Below, piece by piece: positions 40,029 through 57,243 of a DNA stretch of 64,000 nt. Each line of letters begins with the position of its first letter. Position 1 is the stretch's first letter. The notes below the pieces were generated by a model. It was not told where the DNA came from, made no database searches, and saw only the letters and a list, made by a program, of their open reading frames with translations. The DNA comes from Burkholderiaceae bacterium (GTDB taxonomy: Bacteria; Pseudomonadota; Gammaproteobacteria; Burkholderiales; Burkholderiaceae_E): contig JBOEGY010000006.1 in the NCBI GenBank assembly GCA_050633665.1, forward strand, positions 564,824 to 628,823, read 5' to 3'. The translations under genes and the position numbers were made by a program.

Positions 40029-40104
40029 GCCGGCTTAGCTCAGTTGGTAGAGCAACCGCCTTGTAAGCGGTAGGTCGAGAGTTCGAGTCCCTCAGTCGGC
40101 ACCA
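40029..40104 (+). tRNA. tRNA-Thr (anticodon TGT), encoded CCA
   Basis: Folded by hand into a cloverleaf: acceptor GCCGGCT/AGTCGGC, D-arm GCTC-AGTTGGTA-GAGC, anticodon arm ACCGC-CTTGTAA-GCGGT, variable AGGTC, T-arm GAGAG-TTCGAGT-CCCTC, then ACCA. There is one A:C mismatch in the T-stem. Confidence 0.9.
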
Positions 40105-40161
40105 TTCCCGCAGCTTCGCAGCAGTTCACGCTCACAACCCATCTAATCGCTGTCCCGCCTC

Positions 40162-40929
40162 TCAGCTTCCTATGAAGCGTGGGGTGCGTTTTTCTACCCA
40201 TGCTGCCTGCCCCTCTTTCAAATCATCCGATTGCAGCGCGCGGGTGATATCGGCGTGGAGGGCGTTGGGGTCCAGACTGCCCCGGGCAATCGCGTTCAGG
40301 TGTTTTTTCATGCCGAGCAGGGCGATCGGCGCCATTGCGGCGCAGGCATCGGCGATTCGCGTAACTTCAGTGTGCAGTTGGTCGGCCTCAATGAGTTGCG
40401 TGAGATAGCCGATCGCTTTCATTTGCTCCGCGTCGATTTTCTCGGCTGTCAGGAAAAGTCGCTTGGTATTGTCGAGTCCGATTCGACTGACATAGCGCTC
40501 AAGCCCGCTCTGGTAGTAGTGCAGGCCGAGCCGGGCAGCGGGCATAAACATCTGGATGCCGCGGACACCGACCCTGAAGTCGCAGGCGAGCGCAAGGTCG
40601 GTTGCTCCACCATAGACGCCGCCGTGCAAGACCGCGATGGTGATTGGCCGGGCTTGCTCGACAGCGGTCACGACTTCCTCAAAATTCACCGAGCGTGTGC
40701 TCGTGCCAATCTGGGTGATGTTGTAACCGCTGCAGAAATACTTGCCGGTGCCGCACAGTTTCAGCACGAGCACTTCAGGTCGTTGATTGACGGCAGCGAT
40801 ATGGTCGGCGATTGCGGCGAGATCGTCCGGCCCGAGGCGGTTGGCCTGATCGGGGCGGCGCAAGGTGATGGTGGCGATCGCGCCGTTAAGCGTTAGTTCG
40901 GGGCTTTGCCCTTCAGTCTTGGTATTCAA
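40162..40929 (-). CDS. Enoyl-CoA hydratase/isomerase (crotonase) family protein
   Basis: 255 aa. Crotonase-fold motifs (KYFCSGYNI, ITIAVLHGGVYGGATDLALACDFRV). Confidence 0.85.
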   Translation of the reverse strand: MNTKTEGQSPELTLNGAIATITLRRPDQANRLGPDDLAAIADHIAAVNQRPEVLVLKLCGTGKYFCSGYNITQIGTSTRSVNFEEVVTAVEQARPITIAVLHGGVYGGATDLALACDFRVGVRGIQMFMPAARLGLHYYQSGLERYVSRIGLDNTKRLFLTAEKIDAEQMKAIGYLTQLIEADQLHTEVTRIADACAAMAPIALLGMKKHLNAIARGSLDPNALHADITRALQSDDLKEGQAAWVEKRTPRFIGS

Positions 40930-40939
40930 TGTCAGGTAC

Positions 40940-41758
40940 TCATTGGCCTATGAATTTCGGTTTACGTTTTTCCATGAATGCGCGGCGACCTTCCTGATAG
41001 TCGGCACTGTCGAAGCAGTGATCAACCAGCCTGGCCACCGGTTTGCTATCTGCCCCTGAAGTGTATTGCTCGTACAGGCGGACAGCCGCCTTGGCTGCGT
41101 GAATCGTAAGCGGTGCGTTGGCGACGATGCGCGCGGCATAGTCGCGCACGGTTTGTTCGAGTTCCTGAGGGGCCACTTCGTTATTGATCAAGCCAATTCG
41201 TAAGGCCTCGCCGGAATCCAGGAAGCGAGCGCTAAAGAGTAAGTCCTTGGTGTAGGAGGGGCCAATCAATCGCGCAAGCGCGGCGATACCTTCGTACTCG
41301 TAACCCAAACCGAGCTTCGCGGCCGGGATGCCGAAAGTGGCTGCGGTGCTTGCGATTCGAATATCGGCAGTAAGCGCAATCGCCAGTCCGCCACCGATGC
41401 AAAAACCGTCGATCATCGCGATCAGCGGCTTGTCGAGTTGACTTAAGCCTAGGCTCGCCCGCGCGGAAATCTCGCCGTAGTGTCGCTTTTGTTCCGCGTT
41501 GGCGCGATTGCTGTCAAATTCGCTTATGTCAGCGCCTGCCGCGAATGATTTTCCCCCGGCGCCGTGTATGACGATTACCCGAACGGTCTGGTCCGCCGAA
41601 AAGGCTTCTACCGCATCACCCAGGCCTTGCCACATTTCTAGTGACAACGCGTTGCGTCGTTCAGGGTGGTTGAGGGTGAGCCAGCCGATGCCGTCTTCAA
41701 TTCGCGCCACGATGCGAGTCGTTCTCAGGCAGACTTCGCGCGCGGCACTGGTTGTCAT
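40940..41758 (-). CDS. Enoyl-CoA hydratase/isomerase (crotonase) family protein
   Basis: 272 aa. KSFAAGADISEF and LIAMIDGFCIGGGLAIALTADIRIA motifs. Confidence 0.85.
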   Translation of the reverse strand: MTTSAAREVCLRTTRIVARIEDGIGWLTLNHPERRNALSLEMWQGLGDAVEAFSADQTVRVIVIHGAGGKSFAAGADISEFDSNRANAEQKRHYGEISARASLGLSQLDKPLIAMIDGFCIGGGLAIALTADIRIASTAATFGIPAAKLGLGYEYEGIAALARLIGPSYTKDLLFSARFLDSGEALRIGLINNEVAPQELEQTVRDYAARIVANAPLTIHAAKAAVRLYEQYTSGADSKPVARLVDHCFDSADYQEGRRAFMEKRKPKFIGQ

Positions 41759-42963
41759 TCAATGTCTCCGCTTTGCTTAAGCGTTTCAATATCGGCCGGT
41801 TCATAGCCCAGCTCGGCCAGCAGCTCATCGGTCTGTTCGCCGGGATCGGGAGCGGCGTGATGAAAGGCTTCCGGATGGGGCGATGCTGACAGGTTGATTG
41901 GCGAGCGAATCAGGGCGAGCTCACCAAGAACCGGATGGTGCGCGGGTCGGGTCATGCGAAGATGACGAACCTGAGGATCCTCGAAAGCTTCGCCAATGTT
42001 GTAGACAGGGCCGCAGGGAACGCCCGCCCGGTTTAGTTTCTCGACCAGCTCAGCGCAGGTGAGTTGACGTGTCAGCGCGTTGATTGCTGCATCGAGCTGA
42101 TGGCGGTGCTTAACCCGGTCTGCCGGTTCCCGATAATCGGGGTTGTCCTGTAACGAATCTGCCTCGAGCGCTTTACAAAAGCCGGCCCACATGTGGCGCG
42201 TGCTGGCGCAGATGTTCACCTGGCCGTCTTTGGCATCATAGGCGCTCATGGGGACCTGGGTCGGATGGGCATTGCCTTCCTGCCCGGCGACTTTGCCGTC
42301 GACGGTGTAACGCGTGGCCTGGAAGTCGAGCTTGTTCAGCATGCCTTCGATGAGTGACGTGGTCACCCACTGGCCTTCGCCAGTTCGTTCGCGGTGCAGC
42401 AGGGCGAGCAGTATTCCCTGCCCGAGAAACATGCCGGCCGTTGTGTCGGAAATCGCGATGCCGACCCGCATGGCGCCGCGACCGGGTTCGCCGGTTACCG
42501 AACTCAGGCCGGACATGCCTTGCACGATTTGGTCGACACCCGGTCGCGAGCAATACGGCCCATCCTGGCCGAAACCCGAGATGCTCGCGAGCACAACGCG
42601 CGGGTTGATGGCCTTTAGATGTTCATAGTCCAGACCGAGGCGTGTTTTGACTTCGGCGCGAAAGTTCTCAACGACGACATCGCTACGCTTGATCAGTTTT
42701 TGCAGGATCTTGGCGCCGTTAGCTGTTTTCAGGTCGACACAGATACTCCGCTTGTTGCGGTGCAGGTTCTGATCATCAGAGCCGCGGCGGCGTCCCGTGA
42801 CCGACCCGCGATCCATCCGGGCGAGTGGTTCAATCCGGGTGACGTCCGCACCCCAATCGGCGAGCAGGCGCACTGCGGTGGGACCGGCGCGGGCGATGGT
42901 CAGATCGAGCACCTTGAAACCCGACAAAGGCATTGATGAGGCGGTGGTGAGGGTCGTGGACAT
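41755..42963 (-). CDS. Family III (CaiB/BaiF) CoA-transferase
   Basis: 402 aa. LSGFKVLDLTIARAGPTAVRLLADWGADV, DVVVENFR and ISGFGQDGPY motifs. 4-nt overlap with the downstream crotonase gene. Confidence 0.9.
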   Translation of the reverse strand: MSTTLTTASSMPLSGFKVLDLTIARAGPTAVRLLADWGADVTRIEPLARMDRGSVTGRRRGSDDQNLHRNKRSICVDLKTANGAKILQKLIKRSDVVVENFRAEVKTRLGLDYEHLKAINPRVVLASISGFGQDGPYCSRPGVDQIVQGMSGLSSVTGEPGRGAMRVGIAISDTTAGMFLGQGILLALLHRERTGEGQWVTTSLIEGMLNKLDFQATRYTVDGKVAGQEGNAHPTQVPMSAYDAKDGQVNICASTRHMWAGFCKALEADSLQDNPDYREPADRVKHRHQLDAAINALTRQLTCAELVEKLNRAGVPCGPVYNIGEAFEDPQVRHLRMTRPAHHPVLGELALIRSPINLSASPHPEAFHHAAPDPGEQTDELLAELGYEPADIETLKQSGDIE

Positions 42964-42992
42964 GAGTTTTCCTGGAACAATCGGTGACAGAG

Positions 42993-44063
42993 TCAGCCGA
43001 CAAGTGCTACCCCTTCGGGGTCGACGAACAGCATCGACTGGTGGCCGATCTCAAAGACACAGGCTGGCGGTGCGTGGACTTTTATTTCGCAGCCGCCAGT
43101 CACTGGTCTGACCAGGTAGTCCCAGAACTCACCGAGATATGTGCGAGTGATGACTTCAACGGTGCCAATCTGGCGGGCTGCAGTCGGTGCTTCGTCGAGA
43201 AACAAGGCATGGGGACGAATCGATACCCGTTGCGAACGATTAGAGCTTGACGCTGAGCCGCTTACCGGAACGGTGCCGTCAAGCCCATCCAGATGAAGGT
43301 GGCCGTTGTCGAGCTGGCCTTCGATAAGATTCGTTTGACCGATGAATCCGGCGACAAACGGCGTGCGAGGTCGGTTGTACAGGTTCCAGGGGGTATCGAC
43401 TTGTTCGAGCTTCCCCTGGTTGATGACGGCAATCCGGTCCGATATGGTCATGGCTTCGGCCTGGTCGTGGGTGACATAGACCGTGGTGTAGTGAAATTCG
43501 TCGTGCAGGCGGCGGATCTCGCTGGCCATTTCTTCGCGCAAGTTGGCATCAAGATTAGACAACGGTTCGTCGAGCAGTAAAACTTCGGGGCGCACAATCA
43601 TGGCGCGGGCAAGCGCCACTCGTTGCTGCTGCCCGCCGGAAAGTTCGGCCGGGTAACGTCCGGCAAGCGCGTCAAGCTTGACCACTTCGAGCATTTCGGC
43701 GACACGGCGTCTGCGCTCCTCGCTCGGTACCCGGCGAACGTTCAGACCGAATGCGACGTTTTCTTCGACCGTCATGTTGGGCCAGATCGCGTAGCTCTGG
43801 AAAATCATGGACATGCCGCGACGTTCGGGCGGCACGGTTCGTGCTGCAGTCGAGATGGTCTGCCCATCGATTGCAATCGAACCGTCGCTTGGCTCAACAA
43901 AGCCGGCAATCATGCGCAAGGTCGTCGTTTTGCCACAGCCTGAAGGCCCCAGCAAGGTGACGAGCTCGCCTTTGTGAAGTTGCAGGTCGAGATTGTCGAC
44001 GACGGTAAGCCGACCATAGCGCTTGGTAAGTTGCGTGAGTTCGAGTTTGGTCATATTTTTCAT
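42993..44063 (-). CDS. ABC importer ATP-binding protein (PotA/FbpC type, with C-terminal regulatory domain)
   Basis: 356 aa. Walker A GPSGCGKTT, signature LSGGQQQRVALARA, Walker B LLLDEPLSNLD. Confidence 0.9.
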   Translation of the reverse strand: MKNMTKLELTQLTKRYGRLTVVDNLDLQLHKGELVTLLGPSGCGKTTTLRMIAGFVEPSDGSIAIDGQTISTAARTVPPERRGMSMIFQSYAIWPNMTVEENVAFGLNVRRVPSEERRRRVAEMLEVVKLDALAGRYPAELSGGQQQRVALARAMIVRPEVLLLDEPLSNLDANLREEMASEIRRLHDEFHYTTVYVTHDQAEAMTISDRIAVINQGKLEQVDTPWNLYNRPRTPFVAGFIGQTNLIEGQLDNGHLHLDGLDGTVPVSGSASSSNRSQRVSIRPHALFLDEAPTAARQIGTVEVITRTYLGEFWDYLVRPVTGGCEIKVHAPPACVFEIGHQSMLFVDPEGVALVG

Positions 44064-44071
44064 TGGGTTGA

Positions 44072-45772
44072 TTACCCACGTCGCAACATGAAGTCCCTGC
44101 CGGCAACGCGCATGCCGACCGCGACGACCAGAGTGACAATTACCACGAGAACGACTCCCATCGCAGCGAGGCTTTCATAGTTGCCTTGCTCACTTAAATC
44201 GAGGGTGAGGACGGAGACCACGCGAGAGGCGGGGCCGGTGAGGAAAACTGCCGTTGATAGTTCTTTGGTGCAAATCACGAACACGAGGACAAATGCACCG
44301 ACAAGCGTTTTGATCAACAAGGGCACCACTACTTTGCGTAAGACGGTGAGTCGGTTGCCGCCAAGAACACGTACCGCTTCTTCGAGTTCGGGGTTTAGTG
44401 AGCGTACTGCTGCACCACACGCTGTGACTGCAATCGGCAGGAACCGGGTCGTGAACGCCACGACGATCAAGGCGCCGGTGCCATACAGCGAGAATGGCGG
44501 TGAGGCGTAAGCGGCGTACAAACCGATTGCCAGAATCAGGCCAGGTACGGCAATTGGGGCGAGCGCCAGAAACTGGACCAGATTAGGCAGCGGGGTGATG
44601 CGCCGTTGCACGGCGTAAGCTACACAAAGTCCGACAATCACACAGATGAAAGCGGTAGCGGCAGAGTAGGTCACCGTGTTGATCAGCGCAGAGCGCACGG
44701 TAAGTTGCTGAAACAAGATGTCGTGAAAGTTGGCAAGCGTCAGGTTGTCTGGAGAAAGGCCACGGCCCCAGGCCTTTGAGAAAGAGGCTGAGATCAGGAT
44801 CGCCAACGGCAGAATGACCGTAAGCAGCGAGACCAACAGAGAAAAACCTAACAAGGGCCATTTCCAGACGCCAATTTCAAAGGGGCGACGCTCGCCGCCT
44901 TTTCCTGAAACAGATACAAAGCCTTTGCGTGCGAGCAACCGACGCTGCATGAACAACATGACAACCGTTAGCAGCAAGATGGGCATCGAGAACGCAGCCG
45001 CCTGTTCGACCCGTAATGGGTACTCGAAGAACGATACGATCTGGATGGTCGCCAGATTGATCCCGGCTGGAATGGCGAGCAACGCCGGGGTGCCGTACAG
45101 GGCGATGGTTTCAAGAAAAATCAAAATGCCGGCCCCGACGATAGACGGCAATACCAGTGGCAGCGTGACGCGGGTCAGCGTGCGGAACTTGCCGGCTCCG
45201 TGGATCGCAGCAGCGTCTTCCATTTCGGTGGAGACGAGGTCCAGGGCAGATTTGGTGAACACATAAATAAGCGGATAGACGTACAGCGCGATGACAAACG
45301 CCAGGCCCCAGAAGCTAAAGACATTGAACGGACCGGTCTCGGTTCCGAACAAGCCGTTCCAGGCCCGGTTCATCCAGCCGGCGTTCGGTCCGGCCAGAAG
45401 TATCCAGGCGATCGCGCCGAGAAAATTCGGCATGACGAACGCCGCCAGGACACTCATATGGGTGAAGCCACGGCCCGGCATGTCGGTACGTGAGACCGCC
45501 AGTGCCAGGGGCACGCCAATCGCAAGCGACACTGCAGTGACCGCGCCGCCCAGGTAGAGAGAGTTCAGCAACGCCTGTAAGTGGCGCGGCCGACTGAGCG
45601 CTTGAACGTAAGCGTTGACGGTCCAGTCGCCACTGGCTGAATGGAAGCTGTCCCAGACCAGACGCAGGATCGGATTGGCGACCAACACCACCAGAAACAG
45701 GATCAGGAGGGCGAACAGTAGCTTGGACGGGTCGAAATAGCGCCCCAGCGCGCTGGGACGCGCCAGGGGCAT
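44072..45772 (-). CDS. Two-domain ABC importer permease (FbpB-like)
   Basis: Duplicated MalFG-type permease architecture with about 12 TM segments. The start is taken at MPLARPSAL; the ORF-track start at 45814 overlaps the binding-protein gene. Confidence 0.85.
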   Translation of the reverse strand: MPLARPSALGRYFDPSKLLFALLILFLVVLVANPILRLVWDSFHSASGDWTVNAYVQALSRPRHLQALLNSLYLGGAVTAVSLAIGVPLALAVSRTDMPGRGFTHMSVLAAFVMPNFLGAIAWILLAGPNAGWMNRAWNGLFGTETGPFNVFSFWGLAFVIALYVYPLIYVFTKSALDLVSTEMEDAAAIHGAGKFRTLTRVTLPLVLPSIVGAGILIFLETIALYGTPALLAIPAGINLATIQIVSFFEYPLRVEQAAAFSMPILLLTVVMLFMQRRLLARKGFVSVSGKGGERRPFEIGVWKWPLLGFSLLVSLLTVILPLAILISASFSKAWGRGLSPDNLTLANFHDILFQQLTVRSALINTVTYSAATAFICVIVGLCVAYAVQRRITPLPNLVQFLALAPIAVPGLILAIGLYAAYASPPFSLYGTGALIVVAFTTRFLPIAVTACGAAVRSLNPELEEAVRVLGGNRLTVLRKVVVPLLIKTLVGAFVLVFVICTKELSTAVFLTGPASRVVSVLTLDLSEQGNYESLAAMGVVLVVIVTLVVAVGMRVAGRDFMLRRG

Positions 45773-45782
45773 CGATGTAGTC

Positions 45783-46826
45783 TCAGACACCGAAAGCATC
45801 CCGCCACAGTTCAATCACTTCCGGACGCTGAGCGACTGACTCCTCAGGCGTTGGGATCAGCACATTTTCGACATCATCCATACCGATCACACCCGGCAGA
45901 GGTTTGACGCCAGGGCGTCGTGGCACGCCGTATAATTCGCGCGTCAGTTGATCGGTATCGTCGCTGGAGATCAACCACTCGGAAAACAGCTTCGCCGCAT
46001 TCGGGTGTGGCGCATTGGCCAGGATGCCCGACGGCGAGACGATCATGACCGGGCCTTCCTTGGGCGCTACAGAGCCGATCGGGTTGCCCTTGGCTGCAAC
46101 CCGCGCAGCGAGCGTGAGCGGTCCGGCTGAGACGGAGCGTTCGCCCGAGTTCAAGGTGGTGACGGTATCGATAATTGACCGACCGACGTGTGGTTTGTTC
46201 GCCGCGAGTTTGTCAAACCATTCGTCTCCGTAGAGGCGTCGCATTTCGATCGCCCAGGTGCCGACCGCCCCGCTGAAGCCGGGGTGGCCGGTCGCGCCCA
46301 ACCCCATCCATTTGGGATCAAGCAGATCGGCCCAGCTCGTCGGCGCCTCTGCTGCGGTTACCTTGTTTGTGTTGTAGAGCAGGCCAACCATGAACAGGTT
46401 GGCTACATGAAAATAGCCATCGGGGTCGATGCCTTGCAGCCGCTTGTCCAGCCGGGACGTTGACTCCGGCGTGAACTGGGTGAGTAGCTTGCGTGCTTTC
46501 AGGTCCACATAGTGGCCGACATCTGTTGACGAGAACACATCGCAGTTGGCGCTGCTCGCCTTGATGTCCTGGTTCAGACGCTGGAAGGCGACTTGCGCCG
46601 TCGTGCGCACCACATTCACCTTGATGCCCGGATACCGCTTGGTGAAGGTGCGGCCCATGGTCTCGGCGTCTTCCGAGGGCAGAAATACGATGTACCAGGT
46701 GAGTTCACCTTCCTTCTTGGCAGCCTCGTACAGATTGGCGAGTGGGTCGGCCGCCCGGGCGTGAATCCAGGGGACTGCAAGCGTTGATGCTGCAAGCGTA
46801 TTGAAGCGTCGTCGGGTAATTGTCAT
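45783..46826 (-). CDS. Periplasmic solute-binding protein (Fe3+/polyamine-type family) with a twin-arginine-like signal
   Basis: MTITRRRFNTLAASTLAVPWIHARA, followed by a type-II SBP-like sequence. First gene of the ABC operon. Confidence 0.8.
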   Translation of the reverse strand: MTITRRRFNTLAASTLAVPWIHARAADPLANLYEAAKKEGELTWYIVFLPSEDAETMGRTFTKRYPGIKVNVVRTTAQVAFQRLNQDIKASSANCDVFSSTDVGHYVDLKARKLLTQFTPESTSRLDKRLQGIDPDGYFHVANLFMVGLLYNTNKVTAAEAPTSWADLLDPKWMGLGATGHPGFSGAVGTWAIEMRRLYGDEWFDKLAANKPHVGRSIIDTVTTLNSGERSVSAGPLTLAARVAAKGNPIGSVAPKEGPVMIVSPSGILANAPHPNAAKLFSEWLISSDDTDQLTRELYGVPRRPGVKPLPGVIGMDDVENVLIPTPEESVAQRPEVIELWRDAFGV

Positions 46827-46968
46827 GGCTGTCGCCTCCATTTGAGTTTGTTTTTGTTGCGCAATTTAGTGTACTCATAATTTATATAAATATGCAAAAC
46901 CTATTTATAAGTATTTTTATAGGGCGTCGTCGGGTAAACTTCACCTGGTTCATTCAGTCGGAAACCCT

Positions 46969-47949
46969 ATGCAAAGCACCGCGATCCAGTTCTCCCGCAA
47001 TGGCGACCCCGACGTGCTTGAAGTTGTGACCGTCGATGTGCCGGCGCTAGCCCCAGGTGAGGTCCGCATCCGCCAAACAGCAATCGGGCTCAACTTCGCT
47101 GATATCTATCAACGTAAAGGGGCTCATGGCCCGCAGGCGCCGACGCCGTTTCCGATCACACCGGGCTCGCAGGGGGCTGGTGTGATTGAGGCGGTGGGCG
47201 CCGATGTCGAAGGCTTTGCTGTTGGGCAGTCTGTTGCTTACTTTTTGCCCGGCGCCTACCAGACCGTCCGCAACGTACCAGCCGTGCGGGTACTAAAGCT
47301 GCCCGACGGGGTTTCGCAAGAACTCGCTGGCGCCAACCTGCTGCGCGGTCTCACGGCTGAGTATCTGTTGCGCCGGCTCTATGTGGTGCAGCCCGGCGAC
47401 ACCGTTCTGGTCCATGCCGCCGCTGGCGGGATGGGGGTGATCCTGACGCAGTGGGCAAGAGCCCTTGGCGCAACCGTCATCGGTACTGTCGGCTCCGCTG
47501 AGAAAGTAGACGTCGCACGTGCCAATGGTTGTCACCATGTCATTGACTATCGGGCTGAGGATTTCGTCGCAAGGACGCTCGAATTCACTTCAGGCGAAGG
47601 AGTCGCAGTCGTTTATGACGCCGTCGGCAAAGATGTCTTCGTGGCTTCTCTGCAATGTCTGCAGGTACTCGGCATGGCGATCAACTACGGTACCGCCTCC
47701 GGCGACGTCGAAGGGTTTGACCTGAACCTGCTCCATGCGAAATCGCTTCGGGTTTGTCGTCCAACCTTACGCAGTTTCATCGCGGACCCGGCAGATTTGC
47801 GCCAATCGGCGGACCGCTTCTTTGAGGCACTGAATCGCGGCCATGTGAGCCTGGCCGTTGGACAGCGGTTCGCGCTTACCGATGCGCGCGGCGCCCATCG
47901 CGCGCTTGAAGGTCGCTTAACTACCGGTGCGCCGGTATTGATTCCTTAA
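46969..47949 (+). CDS. NADPH:quinone oxidoreductase (MDR superfamily)
   Basis: 326 aa. GLNFADIYQRKG and the nucleotide fold VHAAAGGMGVILTQWA. Confidence 0.9.
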   Translation: MQSTAIQFSRNGDPDVLEVVTVDVPALAPGEVRIRQTAIGLNFADIYQRKGAHGPQAPTPFPITPGSQGAGVIEAVGADVEGFAVGQSVAYFLPGAYQTVRNVPAVRVLKLPDGVSQELAGANLLRGLTAEYLLRRLYVVQPGDTVLVHAAAGGMGVILTQWARALGATVIGTVGSAEKVDVARANGCHHVIDYRAEDFVARTLEFTSGEGVAVVYDAVGKDVFVASLQCLQVLGMAINYGTASGDVEGFDLNLLHAKSLRVCRPTLRSFIADPADLRQSADRFFEALNRGHVSLAVGQRFALTDARGAHRALEGRLTTGAPVLIP

Positions 47950-47973
47950 ACCCTTAAACAATAGGTAGCCCCA

Positions 47974-48753
47974 ATGACAATTAAGCTGTATCACGCATGG
48001 CTCTCAAGTGCCTCCCGGCGGGTTCGGTTGTGCCTGGCTGAAAAAGGGATTGCCTACGAAAGCTTGCCCGTGGACATGGGACGTCAAGAGCATCATTCAC
48101 CCGAATATCTGGCCTTAAATCCGGAGGGTGTGGTGCCGGCATTACTGACTGAAGCGGGGCAGTCCCTGCACGAGAGCTCAACAATCTGCGAGTACCTGGA
48201 CGATTGTTATGAAGAGCCACCGCTGCGCCCAAAAGATCCGTTTGCACGAGCGGTGATGCGCAATTTCGTGCGCTGGACTGATGACAAAGCCCTACCAAAC
48301 CTGCTCATTCTGAACTGGAGTATTGCCTTGCAGCCTGGAGCCAGTCAGTGGAGTGACGCCGAATTGAAGGAAAAACTGGCGCGGATTCCAAATGCCGAGA
48401 GACGCGAGGCCTGGGAGCGAATTGCGCGACGCCCCTATTCACCGGAGGAAAAGGCTGCTGCGCTTAATCGGCTGTTGAAAATCCTGGACAAAATGGAGGC
48501 GATGCTGGTCGATTCCCCTTGGTTGGTGGGCGAAGTCTTTTCTCTGGCTGATATTGCGGCGATTCCGTTTATTGCGCGAATCGAAGAGTTGGCGCCCGAT
48601 GCGCTGGCCGGCAATCATCTGCCTCAGGTTCGAGCCTGGTGGGCGGCTGTTCAACGACGAGCTTCGTGGAAAGAGGCGCGAATCGACCGGTTCGACCAGG
48701 CGTTGGCTGCGCGAGCAGCCAACGCCGCCGCCGGCGAGCCCGCGAACAGGTGA
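47974..48753 (+). CDS. Glutathione S-transferase family protein
   Basis: 259 aa. Thioredoxin-like N-domain (IKLYHAWLSSASRRVRLCLAEKGI...LNPEGVVPAL...ESSTICEYLDD) plus a helical C-domain. Confidence 0.85.
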   Translation: MTIKLYHAWLSSASRRVRLCLAEKGIAYESLPVDMGRQEHHSPEYLALNPEGVVPALLTEAGQSLHESSTICEYLDDCYEEPPLRPKDPFARAVMRNFVRWTDDKALPNLLILNWSIALQPGASQWSDAELKEKLARIPNAERREAWERIARRPYSPEEKAAALNRLLKILDKMEAMLVDSPWLVGEVFSLADIAAIPFIARIEELAPDALAGNHLPQVRAWWAAVQRRASWKEARIDRFDQALAARAANAAAGEPANR

Positions 48754-48787
48754 CTGAGAGGGTTAAAATAAGCGAATCAAACAAGGC

Positions 48788-48814
48788 AATGAGCTATGAA
48801 GCTAATGAGCTATG
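48788..48814 (+). repeat. Tandem direct repeat, 2 x AATGAGCTATG separated by AAGCT, 45 nt upstream of the GntR gene
   Basis: Read directly: aatgagctatg aagct aatgagctatg. Confidence 0.6.
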
Positions 48815-48858
48815 CCCATCGCGCGTCGGCGTTACCGGCTTGAACAATCACAGGACCC

Positions 48859-49521
48859 ATGGCGAACTCGAATCGTATCAACCTTAGTGCAAAGATTCGC
48901 GAAACACTTGAGGACGAGATAACGTCTGGTAAGTTGGTCGCGGGCGAGCATATCGATGAACAGGCACTGATGGATCGGTTCAGCGTCTCGCGTACGCCGG
49001 CGCGCGAGGCCATTTTGCAATTGCTGTCGCTTGGTCTTGTGACCAATATGCCGCGCCAGGGAGTGGTGGTTGCCCAGTTGTCGCTCGCCGAATATATCGC
49101 GATGCTGGAAATTCTGATGGCGCTTGAAGGGCTGGCTGCGCGGCTGGCTGCGCGACGTATGCCCGCATCGCAGCGCAAGTTGCTCAAGGATGCAAATAAG
49201 GCCTGCCGGCTTGCCGCAAAAAACGACGATCCGGCCGCCTATGGCGAGGCAAATCGCATTTTTCACGAGATCATTTATGACGGTAGCCTCAACGAGGTGC
49301 TGGCGCGCCAGCTGAGGGCCATGCGTCTGCGTATGCGTCACCCGAGGCGTGCCTTGTTCGATCGGCCCAGGCGTATGGTGAACTCGCTCGCTGAGCATCA
49401 GACATTGCTCGAGGCGATTGTTAGGGGCGACGAAGATGCTGCATTCGAAATTATGACTGAACACATTTCGAGCGGTGGCAACGTCTATGCAGACTCCATC
49501 GCCGAGATGAGTGATGCTTAG
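48859..49521 (+). CDS. GntR-family transcriptional regulator (FadR/FCD subfamily)
   Basis: 220 aa. Winged HTH (EQALMDRFSVSRTPAREAILQL) plus an all-helical FCD-like C-domain. Confidence 0.9.
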   Translation: MANSNRINLSAKIRETLEDEITSGKLVAGEHIDEQALMDRFSVSRTPAREAILQLLSLGLVTNMPRQGVVVAQLSLAEYIAMLEILMALEGLAARLAARRMPASQRKLLKDANKACRLAAKNDDPAAYGEANRIFHEIIYDGSLNEVLARQLRAMRLRMRHPRRALFDRPRRMVNSLAEHQTLLEAIVRGDEDAAFEIMTEHISSGGNVYADSIAEMSDA

Positions 49522-49587
49522 CCGTCGGCTGTCGCATGCCACCCGGACGATGTTCGCCTGGCCGGCATGCGTTAACGCGAGAAGAAC

Positions 49588-49614
49588 GAGGGGTCGAGCC
49601 CCTCAGTCGGTACC
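49588..49614 (+). repeat. Degenerate copy of a tRNA-Thr 3' half (T-arm + acceptor 3' strand); candidate att remnant that can also fold as a hairpin
   Basis: gaggggtcgagcccctcagtcggtacc versus tRNA 40076-40103 gagagttcgagtccctcagtcggcacc gives 23/27 identities in the same orientation. GAGGG/CCCTC forms a perfect 5-bp stem. Confidence 0.6.
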
Positions 49615-49615
49615 G

Positions 49616-50413
49616 CTAACTGGCAATGAGATCAAACCGTTTGATCCGATAGAGCATCAACGCCAATACCGAACTGAGCAAGGTGCAGGCCCCGATTACC
49701 CACAGGCTCCCGGAAGCGGCCGGGTAGTTCGAAAAAATCGCTACCCGAATCAAATCAAGCCAGTGTGCCAGAGGGTTCATTAGCGCCCATTCGCGCAAAT
49801 TACCCGGCAACGTCGCCAGCATGAAAAAGATGCCAGACGCAAAATACAACGGGCGCATGACTGCCGGAACAAATTTGCCGACGTCGGGCCGCCGGTTCGT
49901 CGCAATGGCCAGAATCAGACCGATCGCGCCGCTGAAAACCAGCAGACTAAGTACCAGGAAGACGAGCAGAAGCGGATTCTGAATCTGAACTGGAAACCCC
50001 AGCCACCAGGCAATGGCTGCCAGTACAATCGCAACGCTGATGAACATGATCAGTTCAACCAGCATCCTGGTGATCACGGTATCAATGGGTTTCACCGGGC
50101 TGAACCCCATCAGCCCTCGGTTTGATGCCATTGCCACCATGCATCGTGTGACGGTATTGCTGAATAACAACCATGGCGCAACGCCACTGGCAAGGAAGAC
50201 AGGGAAGCTGATGTTGGGCATGGTTCGCGCACTGAGCAGCCCGAATACAACCAGCAACGTGCCGATGTGTACCAGAGGCTCCAGCACGACCCACAGGTAG
50301 CCGAGGCGATGGTCGCCAAACCGGGTGCGTAACTCGCGCAGGTATAGGGCAAAGACAACCGCGCGTTGTACCTGCCACGCCGGACGTCTGCTTGGCGCTG
50401 AATAGACGTTCAT
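49616..50413 (-). CDS. ABC-2 type polysaccharide export permease (KpsM-like)
   Basis: 265 aa with about 6 TM segments. The N-terminal segment VVFALYLRELRTRFGDHRLGYLWVVLEPLVHI matches the KpsM/Wzm-type pattern. Confidence 0.8.
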   Translation of the reverse strand: MNVYSAPSRRPAWQVQRAVVFALYLRELRTRFGDHRLGYLWVVLEPLVHIGTLLVVFGLLSARTMPNISFPVFLASGVAPWLLFSNTVTRCMVAMASNRGLMGFSPVKPIDTVITRMLVELIMFISVAIVLAAIAWWLGFPVQIQNPLLLVFLVLSLLVFSGAIGLILAIATNRRPDVGKFVPAVMRPLYFASGIFFMLATLPGNLREWALMNPLAHWLDLIRVAIFSNYPAASGSLWVIGACTLLSSVLALMLYRIKRFDLIAS

Positions 50414-51228
50414 GATGACCAGAAATCAATCATTTGAAAGAGTCTTTCGCGGGTTAGGTGGTTGGTGCTGTGGTCTCCAGCGACGAAGTTCCGGTTATAG
50501 GACAGTCGCAGGTCGTCCAGTGAGGCGACCAGGCGGTTGACAGCCGAGACGTCGGCCGGATATTCCCCGTGCTCCAGGTGCAGCCTGGGTCGCGACGGAT
50601 ATCGGTACACGAAGTCATGCATATCGACCCAACTGCTGCCCACCTCGCGAATCTTTCGTTCCCAGTTCTGGAGCGAGTGGCGGCGGGTGCTCGCATAGTC
50701 GATTTGCGGGTTGATTGCGATAATGCCACCCACATCAAGCCAGAAACCGAAATACAGGGCTGCATAACCGCCCATCGAGCTGCCCAGCAGGTAAGTCTCT
50801 TTTACGCCGAGCCCGTTTTTCTCTAGCAGTCCGCTGATGAATCGGTGATGTCGAAGATTCATCGCCTTTTGATCATCGCCAAGGTAGTAGTGATGTGATT
50901 CATCCTTGAATACGATGTATAAGTCTTCGCTGCCGCTCATGTGTCGGTCGAAGAACCATGACCAGCGCTCGTACTTGCCAGGACTCATGCTGGAAAACGA
51001 GATAATCGCCTTGCGTGGGTTGGCACCGCACATGACCAGGGCGTCAATGCCGTTTTCCTGCACCACGAATCGCTCGAATGGCTTTGGCGTCGGGGGTGTT
51101 GGGGCTGCTTCGGCGCGGCCAGGGGGGGTGGGCGGCTGAGCCGGCAAAACCTGTGCGGCGATTGCGGGGGTGTCCAGCGGGGGGCTCGGATTGGTTCGCA
51201 CAGATGTCGGATCGGTGATCAACTTCAT
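50410..51228 (-). CDS. Alpha/beta-hydrolase-fold protein with a Pro-rich N-terminus (function unknown)
   Basis: 272 aa. Nucleophile-elbow motif LGSSMGGYAALYFG and a late GDHS segment that could supply the catalytic His. I recognise no specific family. Confidence 0.5.
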   Translation of the reverse strand: MKLITDPTSVRTNPSPPLDTPAIAAQVLPAQPPTPPGRAEAAPTPPTPKPFERFVVQENGIDALVMCGANPRKAIISFSSMSPGKYERWSWFFDRHMSGSEDLYIVFKDESHHYYLGDDQKAMNLRHHRFISGLLEKNGLGVKETYLLGSSMGGYAALYFGFWLDVGGIIAINPQIDYASTRRHSLQNWERKIREVGSSWVDMHDFVYRYPSRPRLHLEHGEYPADVSAVNRLVASLDDLRLSYNRNFVAGDHSTNHLTRERLFQMIDFWSS

Positions 51229-51908
51229 GCCGGGACGGTTGCAGATGAGACGACGTCGTCAAATTGCCGGAAAGGCAAATGGGGTCGCAGAAGCGAATGC
51301 TCGCTGCAATTGACTAACTGGCAGCCGGCTTGCGCCATGACCTTGGAGGCATTGGCGATGTTCCAAATCTGAACTGACGTAAACGAGTCTTCAATCTGGG
51401 GGTTGGCTTCAGTGTAGCAACGAGGCGATTCGGCGCTGTATCGTAAATCAACCCCCATCAGGAAAACCCGTCGGCATCCCATAAAGGCCGCAAGCTGAAT
51501 CGCAAGCATGGTTGTCGTGCACCCATAGAAAAATCCGGCGGACAAGTCTGCTGAAAAACCGTCTCGCTTGATATGCGGCGTGTAAGTGGTTCGATCTGCG
51601 AATGCCGGATCGTCATCGGCTTCCAGGTCGGCGCGCAGCACTCGAATCGTGCTGGCGTCTAAGTCGCTGGTCGCCCATCTTCGTTTGACCGGGTGGGTGA
51701 GGAATCGGCGATCAGAAACAACGTAGTAGTCCTGAATGAATCCGAACCGACTCTGGAGGCTGGTCGATCCGTTCATGCCGATGACCAGCTTGTCAGTCAG
51801 TTTGGTCAGGTCTTCGTTTAGAACAGAAGGGCCGTTTCCCAGAATAAAAACATCTTTGTCCTGCTCTTTGTTACGCAAACTTCCGGCGACGTCAAAGTAC
51901 ATTGTCAT
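51225..51908 (-). CDS. Hypothetical protein, DUF115/MptE-like or GT42 sialyltransferase-like
   Basis: 227 aa. DVFILGNGPSV...VIGMNGS near the N-terminus and GCRRVFLMGVDLRYS later. The resemblance is recalled from memory and is not verified. Confidence 0.4.
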   Translation of the reverse strand: MTMYFDVAGSLRNKEQDKDVFILGNGPSVLNEDLTKLTDKLVIGMNGSTSLQSRFGFIQDYYVVSDRRFLTHPVKRRWATSDLDASTIRVLRADLEADDDPAFADRTTYTPHIKRDGFSADLSAGFFYGCTTTMLAIQLAAFMGCRRVFLMGVDLRYSAESPRCYTEANPQIEDSFTSVQIWNIANASKVMAQAGCQLVNCSEHSLLRPHLPFRQFDDVVSSATVPA

Positions 51909-52881
51909 AGACCTTAATATACGGTTTGATCAGTGCTTCGGGCCGAAGATGCTCGCAATAGTAGTCATAGCTCTCCTGCTGTAACCGGCGGGTCAGCTCA
52001 AAGTCGTCAGACAGATTAATCAGTAATTCCTGAGCCGTTTGCTCGTCGGCATAGGTAAACGGCGGAAGATCTTCAGTGTCTGCACATTGGGCCATCATGG
52101 CTCTGCAAAAAAAGTCGGCCCGGTTCACTACAATATTGCCCGCGCACAGACCTTCAAGGGAAACCTGGTGGAAAGCACCGGTCACTATTTCATCAATGGT
52201 CACGTGGCAGGTTTTACGCAGAAACATCAGGGTTGATGGCGACAGTGGCTTCTCAGGTGTCACCAGTTCAATCTTGCCCAATGTGGCCAAGGCCTCGAGA
52301 ATTTTCATCAGGGAATCGGAACATTTCGAGTTCCAGCGTCCACCGCGGGTGTGACTCGGGCTGAACAACACACGCAGCGGCTCACCTTGCTTACGCAAAT
52401 TGATCGTCGGTTGATCCAGCACCAAATTCGGCACCGGCGTGTAATCGGGGTAATGGCGTGGTTGGTATTGACCCACGACCAATCGTGCCCGAAAAGGCAG
52501 CCTGATGGTTTTTGCCCGTTCATAGTACAGAGGGCCTTCACCAAGCGGCGAATGGACTTGATAGACGTATGCGGCGCGAGGCGCAAGACCTTGAATCCAG
52601 TCCTGTTGCTCCGCAGGCAGGTCATTATGGACATGAATGATGTCAGCCTGGGCGAGGGCATGGTCTATCGAGTCGAGGCAGTAGTCATCGGCGTTATCAA
52701 CGATAAGTGAATCGGCGATAAATTTCCCGGACAGTGGGCCGCCGGACGGATAATCGCGCAAACAAATATGCAGGGCTTCGAAGCCGTTGGTATTCAGGAC
52801 CCGGGTTACTTTCGCCGGAGCGCCGACCAGCGGGGTCGGACTGATATGAATGACGTTAACGGACATCGAACAGCATTCCAT
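51892..52881 (-). CDS. Divergent GT-B-like glycosyltransferase (hypothetical)
   Basis: 329 aa. C-terminal half has RVLFSPSHTRGGRWNSK and FHQVSLEGLCAGNIVV, resembling the GT4 EX7E region. The start could instead be the Met at 52866. Confidence 0.45.
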   Translation of the reverse strand: MECCSMSVNVIHISPTPLVGAPAKVTRVLNTNGFEALHICLRDYPSGGPLSGKFIADSLIVDNADDYCLDSIDHALAQADIIHVHNDLPAEQQDWIQGLAPRAAYVYQVHSPLGEGPLYYERAKTIRLPFRARLVVGQYQPRHYPDYTPVPNLVLDQPTINLRKQGEPLRVLFSPSHTRGGRWNSKCSDSLMKILEALATLGKIELVTPEKPLSPSTLMFLRKTCHVTIDEIVTGAFHQVSLEGLCAGNIVVNRADFFCRAMMAQCADTEDLPPFTYADEQTAQELLINLSDDFELTRRLQQESYDYYCEHLRPEALIKPYIKVYDNVL

Positions 52882-54940
52882 CTCTCAGGGCCAGGCGAAT
52901 CAGATCGCTCGCTGACTCGCCATTTTCAACGGCCTCGCATAACGAGCGATATCGCATATAGACCGAATCCAGAACAAGCATTCGTTTTATGCTTGGCGCC
53001 ATGTTGCGCAGATAGTCGTCCAGGCAGTCGGCCTTGATTGCGCGCATTTCGCCAAGCTCGATAATCCCCTGAAATCTATTCGGATCAAACCCGAACAACT
53101 CAGGGTCGTAATCGTTCGCACCGATCAGTGGCAGCAACATGTCGGGCTGCTTGGGGCCCAGTTCCTGGACGACGCGTCGAATCGTTGCCGGGAGGTTTTC
53201 GGCCCGCAAGAACGGGGTACTTCGTCGCCAGGGGGCAGGGCTGGACGGGGCGCAGCGATTGTCGAAAATCAGGGCGTCGGTTGATACCGGGTCTAGTGGC
53301 AGATCTGCCGGAGCCCGGTCGGTCAGAATCAAAACGGTTTTTCCGGTCGGCATGCAAGCCTTGAATGCTCGAATCAGGTGGGCTGGGGTATCGACGAAGA
53401 AGACAAAATCGAATGTTTCGATTTTCTCTTTGTTCTTGCGATCAATGCGTTCAATGATTGAATCGTCCGTCTGATCGATCAGGTCGTCGTATTCGAACAA
53501 AGACAGGTTACGGGTCTGGGTGGGCGAAAAGTCTTCAAAACAATCCAGGTTCGCGCAAAGCTGGGCGATTCGTTCACGGTCACCACTGTCATGAGCCAGG
53601 CCGGTGGTCCAGCCATTGGCTTTTTTGTTCGGCAGATCGATCTTGATGAAGTCTGTTTTCTTGATCCGACTGACCAGTTGCCGCTCGGGATAGCGGCTCG
53701 CTCTGCTGGCCGGTTTGATATTCAGTCCTGACGCGGTGTTGAAAACTTGTCGGGTGACGGCGGCGTGAGCCTCTGGACGAGTTAGCGTACTGCGCAGCGT
53801 TGAATCCAGCCAGAACTGATTCGGATCGCGCACCAGTTTGCGCACTTTTCGTTGCAATATACGGCTGCGTTGTGTCCAGTCCGTGCGGTTCATTCTCTTG
53901 ATTTCCTGGGTCAAAGTCTGCCTGATATTGGTGTGGTCTGGCGAGCTCAAAGGAGGAATCGACGCAGGTCGAGTCTGTCGTAACAGGGTGTTGGTGGCCA
54001 TATCGAATCCACAGTTTATTCGTGAGATCGCTTCATCAACGTTCGAAATACGGGTCTCTTTCAGCGCTGATTCAACTTTAGTCGCAAGGTCATCCAGGCT
54101 GAACGGCTTCGCGTGATACAGAAGATCGTTGCCCGCGTATTCTGTTAAGCCCAGGTGTGACCAGCAGACTATTCGACAACCCGCTGCGAGAGCCTCTAGT
54201 CCAACCATCGAGGCGGTCTCAAATTGACTCGGAATGATGACGACTTTTGATCTGGACAGCGCTTCGGCTCGTTTCGCCGGCGTGTCGGCGGCTAGCGCGA
54301 TCGCGTTTCGCGGCAATCGCAAATCTTGAGCGGCAGTGGCGAGTGCAAAGCGACAATCGGGCAGCCGCTTTATCAGTGCGCGCACATAGTCCCGTCCTTT
54401 CAGTGACTGCCAGCGCCCCAGAAACAAGACATCAATATCGGGTTGTCTGCGGCGGGTTTCGCTCGGCGGCGCCGGGTTTGGATAGACGACAACGCCATCG
54501 GGAAGTCTGAAAGACATATTGCCGGCGGTTACCGCAGCCTGAGAGGGCGCGGAAATCATCCACGCCCGGTCCAGTAGTTCTTGCTCTAGTGTCTGGGCTG
54601 TTTCGTCTACCGGCAGGCCCTGGAGTCTGGCGCCGAGATCTCTGGAGCCATGTAGCCGAACGTGTATGAGCCAGCGCTTGTCGATATGTCGTGCGGCGGC
54701 AAGCGTTTCCGGGACTTCAACAATTGCACCGGGGCGGGCGGTTCGCGCGAGCTCACGTGGCAGCCTCTTGGCGAAGGCCTCGATGGATTCATCAGCTTGT
54801 CGGGTGATCTGGGTGATCGAGTCGGCTTGTTGCCGGAGGCGTTCGCCAGCAAGCTGACAATAACGCGTTACGCCGCTTGTATGCGATGAGAAGGGATCGA
54901 CCAGGACGTAGCTCGCCCGGGCCTGGTCAGGTCTAACCAC
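52856..54940 (-). CDS. 694-aa protein: N-terminal GT4-type glycosyltransferase domain plus ~350-aa uncharacterised C-terminal region
   Basis: GT4 signature VVIIPSQFETASMVGLEALAAGCRIV at about aa 240-265. I cannot assign the downstream region (RKVRKLVRDPNQFWLDS ... DFVFFVDTPAHLIRAF ...). Confidence 0.6.
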   Translation of the reverse strand: MVRPDQARASYVLVDPFSSHTSGVTRYCQLAGERLRQQADSITQITRQADESIEAFAKRLPRELARTARPGAIVEVPETLAAARHIDKRWLIHVRLHGSRDLGARLQGLPVDETAQTLEQELLDRAWMISAPSQAAVTAGNMSFRLPDGVVVYPNPAPPSETRRRQPDIDVLFLGRWQSLKGRDYVRALIKRLPDCRFALATAAQDLRLPRNAIALAADTPAKRAEALSRSKVVIIPSQFETASMVGLEALAAGCRIVCWSHLGLTEYAGNDLLYHAKPFSLDDLATKVESALKETRISNVDEAISRINCGFDMATNTLLRQTRPASIPPLSSPDHTNIRQTLTQEIKRMNRTDWTQRSRILQRKVRKLVRDPNQFWLDSTLRSTLTRPEAHAAVTRQVFNTASGLNIKPASRASRYPERQLVSRIKKTDFIKIDLPNKKANGWTTGLAHDSGDRERIAQLCANLDCFEDFSPTQTRNLSLFEYDDLIDQTDDSIIERIDRKNKEKIETFDFVFFVDTPAHLIRAFKACMPTGKTVLILTDRAPADLPLDPVSTDALIFDNRCAPSSPAPWRRSTPFLRAENLPATIRRVVQELGPKQPDMLLPLIGANDYDPELFGFDPNRFQGIIELGEMRAIKADCLDDYLRNMAPSIKRMLVLDSVYMRYRSLCEAVENGESASDLIRLALRDGMLFDVR

Positions 54941-55084
54941 AAGAGACTTTCGCAGCCGGTTAATAAAGAAGTGGCGAACGCCTCGTTAAGCGGCGTCATC
55001 GAACTTTGATTATCGACACCTCGGGTGCGGCCAATTCCGTAAAAAGGAAAGCAGAAACCGGCTTTATCGGCTCTATCGAATGGA

Positions 55085-55864
55085 TCAGCCCACGCTGGTC
55101 TTGTCGCGCAGATGGCGACCGGCGGTGGCGGATCGAGTTTGGCCAAGTTCGTTGCCGATCAGCGCACCAATGACCAGGCAGCCGCCCCAAAGGGTGGCGT
55201 CCGCAGGGCGTTCGCCAACGCCCAGCCAGACCCATACCGGGCCAAAAACGACTTCCAGCAATAGAATCATCGCGACTTCCTGTGGCGCGAGATACCGGGC
55301 TGCAATGACAATCAGACTGCACGGCAAGCCCAGTTGAAAGACTCCAAGGGCTGCCAGCCAGGCAATGTCGCGACCAGTTGCGCTTACCGGGAAGAGTAAC
55401 GGCAGCATCAACAACGAGGATATGGCTGCGCCAATCAGGATTGCCGGCAGAAAATCGATTTGCCCCTGGTTTTTCTTGAGCAAGATCAGATTGGTGGCTG
55501 AGGCCAGAGGGACTGCGGCGGCGATCAGCATTCCCCAGTGGCTGTGGGGCAGGCTGTCCTCAGACAGTAGCCCATCCGACACCATCCAGATGCACCCCAG
55601 TGCGGCGACGGTTATCGCCAGCCAGGTGTGTGGCGCAATTCGTTCGCTCAGAAAGAGCCGCGCCATCAATGCGGCCACTAACGGCGCTATCGCGATGAGG
55701 ATCAATGCGTTGGCAACAGTCGTCAGAGTCAGCGCGACTGAAAAGCAGGTGAACATGACTGCCCAGAGCATGCCCGACAGCAAGATTGGCCAGCCGCCCC
55801 GGCGCAGTTCGCGCGTCCAGTGCTGCCGTTCGCGTGCGATCAGGATGGCCAGCAAGAAAATCAA
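55085..55864 (-). CDS. EamA/DMT-family transporter (the N-terminus as called is probably truncated)
   Basis: 259 aa from TTG, with about 9 TM segments. A further 65 in-frame codons upstream encode a typical first TM helix but contain no ATG, GTG or TTG (see findings). Confidence 0.8.
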   Translation of the reverse strand: MIFLLAILIARERQHWTRELRRGGWPILLSGMLWAVMFTCFSVALTLTTVANALILIAIAPLVAALMARLFLSERIAPHTWLAITVAALGCIWMVSDGLLSEDSLPHSHWGMLIAAAVPLASATNLILLKKNQGQIDFLPAILIGAAISSLLMLPLLFPVSATGRDIAWLAALGVFQLGLPCSLIVIAARYLAPQEVAMILLLEVVFGPVWVWLGVGERPADATLWGGCLVIGALIGNELGQTRSATAGRHLRDKTSVG

Positions 55865-56100
55865 ACAGGTGAATGAGCGCCAGAAGGTGATTTCAAATCC
55901 GGCCGCTTGTTCGAGTCGGCGTACGACAATACCGGCACTGCTTAACAGCAGGCCACAAATGATCAGCGTGGCAATTGCAAGTCCGCGTGTATGTCTGCTG
56001 GGCTGGTGGGTTGGGCTTGAAGGGATGGCTTGCTCCTGACGGGGAAATACTGACCACCGCTATTATCTGTCAGACCGAATCACAAGTGAGCATCTTCCAA

Positions 56101-56904: not shown

Positions 56905-56969
56905 ACCGTCAGTTGCAGGTGCAATTGCACTGATACTGGACAGTGCGTCGGCCTCCGGTTGGGCTCGGG

Positions 56970-56996
56970 CGCCCGATCAATTCGGGCGGGTTTTTC
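56970..56996 (+). terminator. Rho-independent terminator downstream of the SDR gene
   Basis: cgcccga-tcaat-tcgggcg, followed by ggtttttcc. Read directly. Confidence 0.5.
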
Positions 56997-57243
56997 CCCA
57001 CCCAGAATGCGGTTTCGTGTTGTGCGAGGTTTTAGGTGATCAAAGAGTTATTGAGTCATCCGAGCCAAAAAGTTTCTTGCGGAAATTCACGTTTATAGCG
57101 GTATGCCAACCGCTGGCTTGCATATCCTGACAAAGTTCAGGCTAGAATGAGCCCAGATTTGCTGGCACGGACTGGCTTGTCACACTCATTCACAGGGGGC
57201 CGTATCCGTCAGGGTATCGGTACTACCATCAATGGAGACACTT

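Follow-up and report, generated by a model that had tools for sequence, protein, structure and literature searches.

A displaced copy of a tRNA-Thr 3′ end beside a nine-gene catabolic cluster in a Burkholderiaceae bacterium: a probable scar of an old tRNA-targeted insertion

Genomic islands anchored in tRNA genes, their decay and cis-mobilizable remnants are textbook matter. The signature on which the Islander approach relies is a regenerated tDNA accompanied by a displaced 3′ fragment (Hudson, Lau and Williams 2015, PMC4383910), and attachment (att) sites of the attP type that lie in the T-stem region are common in that collection, with 1836 of 3919 islands (PMC4383910). Cis-mobilizable elements (CIMEs) were defined in the ICEberg 2.0 paper from work on integrative and conjugative elements (ICEs) of Streptococcus (PMC6323972). 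Here we analyze a 64-kb stretch of DNA from a Burkholderiaceae bacterium (hereafter the window; C6:564824-628823 of the 5.26-Mb assembly G000), in which an intact tRNA-Thr(UGU) gene is followed by a displaced copy of its own 3′ end, with a nine-gene metabolic cluster between the two. On balance we consider it probable that this copy is an old attR-type scar of a tyrosine-integrase insertion, and that the island which it delimits, in a tRNA-Thr hotspot of variable content, is CIME-like and contains cargo only.

The only tRNA that ARAGORN calls in the window is a tRNA-Thr with anticodon tgt (40029-40104, plus strand), as a preliminary description made from the letters of this DNA had stated. That description had also reported a 27-nt partial copy of the tRNA with 23 matches, 19 of them in a core of 21 nt, and our alignment agrees. 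The segment at 49588-49614 reads GAGGGGTCGAGCCCCTCAGTCGGTACC, and tRNA positions 49-75, which comprise the T-arm and the 3′ acceptor strand, read GAGAGTTCGAGTCCCTCAGTCGGCACC. The ungapped alignment of the two gives 23/27 overall and 19/21 in the core, and the four differences are at tRNA positions 52 (A to G), 54 (T to G), 60 (T to C) and 72 (C to T). Because a conspecific assembly (L017) has C at position 72, which raises its repeat to 24/27, the T at 49611 is a within-species polymorphism.

The 27-mer is single-copy on both strands of the assembly, and the sole site with five or fewer mismatches is the 3′ end of tRNA-Thr(TGT) itself. A repetitive extragenic palindromic (REP) element or other dispersed hairpin was considered as the source of the repeat and ruled out because of this single occurrence. 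When the repeat was compared with 46 tRNAs of the genome, the adjacent tRNA-Thr(TGT) was the best partner (23/27) and the runners-up reached 19/27; the search for further copies and for tRNA paralogues that had been proposed at the outset thus uncovered no other copy and no better parent. The core, with two mismatches allowed, did not occur in 100 dinucleotide-preserving shuffles of the window. By our own calculation under equal base frequencies, a match of at least 23/27 has a probability of 8.4e-11 per position, and approximately 9e-4 such matches are expected per genome and 2e-6 within 20 kb downstream. The repeat is real, is derived from the tRNA and lies beyond chance. No further matches to the tRNA 3′ end (at least 16/20 or at least 14/17) were found in the window. 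Exact searches with a 25-nt repeat core retrieved nothing from metagenome or viral contigs. A looser 21-mer search returned mostly genuine tRNA-Thr genes, along with three displaced tRNA halves and a few coincidences in coding sequence, and had no matches among viral contigs.

In the older variant of the repeat, represented by L017, all three differences from the tRNA (A52G, T54G and T60C) fall within the left 12 nt; the other 15 nt are identical to the tRNA. The left 12 nt (GAGGGGTCGAGC) may come from the attP arm of the element itself, the host tRNA end that the insertion displaced would make up the right 15 nt (in the older variant, CCCTCAGTCGGCACC), and the crossover would have occurred in, or just 3′ of, the T-loop. 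Differences confined to the left 12 nt are what a hybrid attR, composed of a P-arm and a B′-arm, predicts. Moreover, the left part of the scar resembles T-arms of tRNA-Thr(UGU) from other organisms. For example, the corresponding T-arm segment in L087 (GGGGGTTCGAGCCCCTCAGTCGGCACC) matches the window repeat at 24/27 positions and, by our own count, the C72 variant at 25/27.

The T-arm of the live tRNA (GAGAG-TTCGAGT-CCCTC) carries an A52·C62 mismatch in its stem. Because the same T-arm is present in G004, G005 and L091, and also in the metagenome contigs L081, L084 and L099, this mismatch is inherited and not an artefact of the island. Other species of the genus have the T-stem GTCCG/CGGAC, which is fully paired.

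The substitutions A52G, T54G and T60C convert the mismatched 5-bp T-stem into a perfect, GC-rich hairpin of 6-7 bp, with a predicted RNA folding energy of -12.7 kcal/mol for the scar versus -2.1 kcal/mol for the live tRNA segment. On the minus strand the hairpin is followed by TTCTTCT, directly after the stop codon of kpsM, the gene immediately to the right, and our scan flagged this arrangement as terminator-like. The strength of the hairpin and the trailing pyrimidines are what would be expected if the 27-mer were an independent GC-rich terminator between convergent genes that resembles a T-arm by coincidence. We find this explanation barely credible. The 10 nt 3′ of the hairpin (AGTCGG[C/T]ACC) lie outside it and yet match the acceptor strand at 9-10 of 10 positions, and the expected number of genomic matches and the empty shuffles described above speak against a lookalike as well. 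Terminator-like flags are also not enriched in the region (17, versus 16.6 expected from shuffles), and homologous GntR and kpsM loci do not contain the 27-mer (40-odd loci searched).

Because such flags are no commoner than in shuffled sequence, a function of the scar as kpsM terminator can be regarded as only a lead. A bolder proposal is that the scar has been reshaped into the intrinsic terminator of the relocated kpsM operon, and perhaps also of the convergent GntR gene, or else that the block is a trans-mobilizable, integrase-less cassette that could be excised by a tRNA-Thr-specific integrase. We hold this to be distinctly unlikely, although if true an att site would have been reused as a regulatory element.

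A fragment that lies downstream of the tRNA and on the same strand could alternatively be the 3′ remnant of a tandem tRNA-Thr duplicate, the 5′ half of which was destroyed when the cluster inserted between the copies. Tandem arrays that include tRNA-Thr(UGU) do exist elsewhere (contigs L084 and L099). However, a single tRNA-Thr(TGT) follows the sspB gene in 8/8 same-genus species and in L091, no trace of the tRNA 5′ two-thirds can be seen upstream of 49588 (sequence read over 49522-49587), and the fragment begins at the T-arm, where att sites canonically have their boundary (PMC4383910). We consider an origin by tandem duplication very improbable. The motif GCCGGC at 49561-49566 was examined as a possible remnant of the tRNA 5′ half and was rejected, since it is wrongly spaced and is part of an unrelated 8-bp inverted repeat. 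In the same spacer, beginning 12 nt past the GntR stop codon, the inverted repeat CGCATGCC (49533-49540) and GGCATGCG (49563-49570), which has an inner stem, forms the strongest predicted structure and is a candidate terminator for the plus-strand genes.

All nine genes between the tRNA and the scar (40162-49521) could be assigned with Pfam and NCBIfam (Table 1), and the metabolic content claimed in the preliminary description is borne out by Pfam. With respect to specific function, none of the nine scores above the cut-off of an NCBIfam equivalog model, and the single subfamily model that is passed concerns one crotonase (NF004781). A scan of one genome per species identified about 30 Comamonadaceae loci with the same nine genes, in Variovorax, Acidovorax, Pseudorhodoferax, Caenimonas, Xenophilus and Giesbergeria. 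The encoded proteins are 60-82% identical in amino acids to those of the window, and gene order and orientation are the same in several of these loci (e.g. L021, L023 and L028). Nucleotide homology to the Comamonadaceae clusters, at about 70% identity, covers 40161-49510 only, limits that coincide with the cluster's own ends, namely the first stop codon on the left and the end of the last gene on the right. Because the homology spans exactly this interval, the block is one complete set of operons for uptake and CoA-dependent catabolism, of the Comamonadaceae type. Two variants of the cluster occur: in one the GntR gene adjoins the gene for the solute-binding protein (SBP), and in the other about 1.7 kb of extra DNA lies between the ATPase and CoA-transferase genes (loci L021-L045, L054 and L061).

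In maximum-likelihood trees, the permease and CoA-transferase copies of the block nest inside the Comamonadaceae clade (support 100/99 and 100/100), and same-genus homologues form a separate clade in both trees. The block permease is 78-82% identical to Comamonadaceae proteins, whereas the best permease homologues in the same genus, which are encoded at other loci, are only 52-55% identical. For comparison, the cytochrome b encoded in the left flank shares 82-93% identity with its counterparts in the genus but only 71-72% with those in Variovorax, Acidovorax, Pseudorhodoferax and Herminiimonas. The nine-gene block is foreign and lineage-specific.

The GC content of the block is 0.583, versus 0.572 for the genome, in tetranucleotide distance it ranks at the 86th percentile among genome windows of its size, and its GC content at third codon positions (GC3) is 0.668, versus 0.666 for the flanks. 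The homologous Comamonadaceae clusters mostly have GC3 values of 0.89-0.95, with two loci at 0.71 and 0.77. Compositional foreignness was therefore rejected, as GC, tetranucleotide distance and GC3 are all host-like, and composition can neither date nor prove the transfer; the compositional scan suggested in the preliminary description accords with an old insertion but gives no sign of foreignness. Either the transfer is old and the composition has adapted to the host, or the donor came from a lineage with similar GC that has not been sampled. Five conspecific assemblies (99.7-99.9% identity) were identified by an exact-protein look-up of SspB. All five carry the block, the repeat is present in all four that reach the site (L016-L019), and no strain without the island was found among the five. 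Host-like composition and presence in all conspecifics fit an old, fixed insertion.

The sspB gene is present in 40/40 relatives searched, with tRNA-Thr beside it in most. We compared the DNA downstream of tRNA-Thr in eight species of the same genus, and no gene of the block or of the neighboring capsule operon is found there in any of them. These eight species and the metagenome contig L091 keep the sspB-tRNA-Thr arrangement without the block and without the repeat; the contrary finding named in the preliminary description, that relatives lacking the island would nevertheless carry the 27-mer, was thus not encountered. The tRNA-Thr genes of G004, G005 and L091 are identical to that of the window at 76/76 positions, including A52·C62, and no repeat is present in these three. 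Each of the eight species has different DNA downstream of the tRNA, and the open reading frames (ORFs) located there map to the window only from 56101 on, as judged by reciprocal tblastn against G000. Because shared gene order resumes only at this point, the lineage-specific DNA amounts to about 16 kb (40105-56100) and comprises the nine-gene block, the repeat, a five-gene capsule-type operon and an EamA gene.

Reconstruction of an empty site was attempted by comparing the 300 nt past tRNA-Thr in the eight relatives with 40105-57000, and was abandoned when only the short-chain dehydrogenase (SDR) gene of G001, in inverted orientation, could be aligned. Because the flanks are not alignable between species, the exact empty site cannot be rebuilt. 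The expectation in the preliminary description that relatives would have the sequence right of 49614 directly after sspB-tRNA-Thr was not borne out. Downstream of tRNA-Thr, G005 (L002) and L091 have a gene related to C6:302310-303656, and G005 has in addition two genes related to contig C15 and no SDR gene. The gene content of G005 and L091 shows independent turnover at the tRNA-Thr hotspot.

Table 1. Features of the tRNA-Thr locus, in window coordinates
Feature	Position	Strand	Basis or remark
Intact tRNA-Thr(UGU) (anticodon tgt), read as the attL side	40029..40104	+	ARAGORN
Spacer of 57 nt, from the tRNA 3′ end to the stop codon of the first crotonase gene	40105..40161	.	Sequence, ORF list
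Six-gene operon: crotonase, crotonase, family III CoA-transferase, ATP-binding cassette (ABC) ATPase, fused double permease, solute-binding protein	40162..46841	-	Pfam, NCBIfam
Quinone oxidoreductase (QOR), glutathione S-transferase (GST) and GntR/FCD regulator; divergent	46969..49521	+	Pfam, synteny
Spacer of 66 nt after the GntR stop codon	49522..49587	.	Sequence; RNA fold
Direct repeat of tRNA-Thr positions 49-75, interpreted as an attR-type scar	49588..49614	+	23/27; 24/27 in L017
Five-gene capsule-type operon ending in kpsM (ABC-2 permease), outside the repeat-bounded block	49616..54940	-	Pfam
EamA-family transporter gene, last lineage-specific gene	55085..56038	-	Pfam; not downstream of tRNA-Thr in relatives
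Short-chain dehydrogenase, first gene common with relatives, right edge of the variable region	56101..56904	+	Reciprocal tblastn, Pfam

A glycan operon had been described as starting 2 nt after the repeat. It is encoded on the minus strand, and it is therefore its end that lies there, with the kpsM gene (49616-50413) and its stop codon at 49616-49618. The kpsM product is 68-72% identical to orthologues in G002, G004 and G005, in which kpsM is the first gene of the kps capsule export locus and directly precedes kpsT. The kps locus of G000 (C6:274667-282702), which is located about 336 kb from the kpsM gene of the window, contains kpsS, kpsC, kpsT, kpsE, kpsD and kpsF without kpsM. Because the window copy is the very gene that is missing from this distant locus, the capsule system is split, and the DNA right of the repeat is a rearranged part of it and not an ancestral flank of the tRNA. 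The search for tRNA 3′ ends in the window revealed no second tRNA fragment bounding the right side of the capsule segment. A second island in tandem, as had been suggested, is consequently hard to maintain, since the right segment has neither a repeat nor an integrase of its own and holds a relocated kpsM; it is better described as a mosaic than as a demonstrated island.

Mobility genes are absent from the block. A six-frame search of the genome with PF00589 gave eight integrase matches, with none in C6:604928-620900, which bears out the earlier statement that the block lacks an integrase. A custom integrase hidden Markov model found none in the whole window, the ORFs of the region without exception fall in metabolic or transport families, and the spacer at 40105-40161 has no room for an integrase remnant.

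The tRNA itself is a genuine integrase target in nature and a proven one in Burkholderiales, as a complete island in G029 shows; displaced tRNA halves are also present in the contigs L082, L088 and L102. G029, which belongs to another family of the same order, carries a canonical 21.2-kb island at tRNA-Thr(UGU) (C1:3031838-3053159; L077:839-914 to L078). There the gene immediately past the tRNA encodes the integrase, and 21.2 kb away the tRNA sequence from the anticodon loop onward is repeated, directly and without mismatch, over at least 45 nt. The three metagenome contigs carry 3′ halves of tRNA-Thr(UGU) that also start from the anticodon loop (TTTGTAATCAGTGGGTCGGGGGTTCGAGTCCCTCAGTCGGCACCA) and are preceded by sequence unrelated to a tRNA. 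ARAGORN calls no tRNA at these half-sites, which probably serve other elements targeting tRNA-Thr(UGU) as att sites.

We therefore return to the proposal that an integrase inserted an island at this tRNA. The 27-mer would be the distal att scar left when a tyrosine integrase inserted an element at the 3′ end of tRNA-Thr(UGU), and the DNA between tRNA and scar would be cargo only, consisting of the nine-gene cluster with spacers of 57 and 66 nt. Genes for integration and transfer may have been lost, or may never have been in this part, as would be the case for a cis-mobilizable element left when its partner excised. The insertion would be old, given that it is fixed in the species, is host-like in composition and has an imperfect repeat. 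A scar is supported by a repeat that is unique, is on the same strand as the tRNA, is located 9.5 kb downstream and has the adjacent tRNA as its best partner. We infer that an integrase made the repeat and that repeat and block belong to the same event.

Several observations weigh against this account. The roughly 30 Comamonadaceae loci with the cluster are ordinary chromosomal operons that have no tRNA-Thr, tRNA fragment or integrase within 10 kb, and we know of no mobile version of the nine-gene cluster. Composition offers no independent sign of foreignness. There is no integrase, excisionase, relaxase, transposase or fragment of one in 40105-56100, where no spacer or intergenic gap is long enough to conceal a pseudogene. 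Among 15 relatives searched for PF00589, ten of them near their tRNA-Thr, an integrase adjoins tRNA-Thr(UGU) in G029 only, so the variability of the hotspot is not visibly driven by integrases. Three of the four substitutions in the scar strengthen its hairpin, and selection on a terminator-like structure could explain them as well as an origin in the P-arm. Finally, the classical empty-site test fails, since the scar is not followed by the ancestral flank. The old, immobilised island put forward in the preliminary description retains its tRNA-derived repeat, the absence of the block from relatives, the foreign placement in trees, the lack of an integrase and the host-like composition, but not an ancestral flank right of 49614.

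It is also conceivable, if rather unlikely in our view, that the att scar is true but stems from a different event. An earlier tRNA-Thr island would have been lost or replaced, and the cluster and the capsule segment would have come in differently, for instance when flanks were exchanged by homologous recombination, or through illegitimate recombination or rearrangement. The locus is indeed a mosaic, with relocated kpsM capsule genes and an EamA gene that precede the first conserved gene without a repeat of their own. All relatives differ at this position, again without integrases or repeats, and the nine-gene cluster is on no known mobile element. Moreover, with the stop codon of kpsM within 2 nt, the scar could just as well delimit the capsule segment. 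However, the block occupies precisely the stretch from tRNA to scar, leaving less than 70 nt of spacer on each side and nothing else inside, and a history of separate events requires an extra, undocumented insertion mechanism that happened to land between two att sites.

If insertion by an integrase, which we favor, is correct, then the locus would be a clean and well-bounded case of a complete catabolic operon crossing between families of Burkholderiales and ending up at a tRNA hotspot, where nothing but the att scar would be left of the vehicle. Finders that require an integrase, such as Islander and ICEfinder, miss islands of this kind, and the locus could thus be useful for calibrating scar-based detection. 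No concept is changed by this example, which is real but ordinary. Independent of the island question, the nine-gene cluster is found widely across Comamonadaceae, and functional work on it would be reasonable.

Among known systems, the Comamonadaceae clusters of Variovorax, Acidovorax and Pseudorhodoferax (L021-L045), arranged as GntR-GST-QOR / SBP-permease-ATPase-CoA-transferase-crotonase-crotonase, contain the same nine genes as the block. In contrast to the block, they are not beside tRNA-Thr and have no adjoining tRNA fragment, and their GC3 is mostly 0.89-0.95, against 0.67 in the block.

With tDNA islands of the Islander type, the block shares an intact tRNA at one end and a cognate 3′ fragment, correctly oriented on the same strand, at the other. 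It also shares a tRNA 3′ end that points inward, a size of about 10 kb, accessory metabolic cargo and absence from relatives, here combined with foreign ancestry. However, an integrase gene is obligatory in those islands (PMC4383910) and none is present inside the block, which thus falls outside that definition. Furthermore, the DNA directly past the fragment is more accessory DNA and not ancestral chromosome. The contrast with the G029 island is also evident in the repeats, since the window fragment is a 27-nt, imperfect copy (23-24/27) that starts at the T-arm, whereas that of G029 is perfect, at least 45 nt long and starts from the anticodon loop.

CIMEs have intact att sites and a known cognate ICE by definition, and described examples are from Streptococcus, a member of the Firmicutes, and not from Burkholderiales (PMC6323972). 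The distal site in the window is imperfect, with an identical core of 15 nt (L017) or 10 nt (window) and a T-arm part that differs at three positions, and no cognate tRNA-Thr-specific integrase or ICE was found beside tRNA-Thr in G000 or in the same-genus relatives searched. The block therefore seems to correspond to the CIME definition only in part. Like a CIME, it consists of cargo only, without genes for integration or for conjugation and transfer, and it could have been left behind after accretion with a partner element that was subsequently excised.

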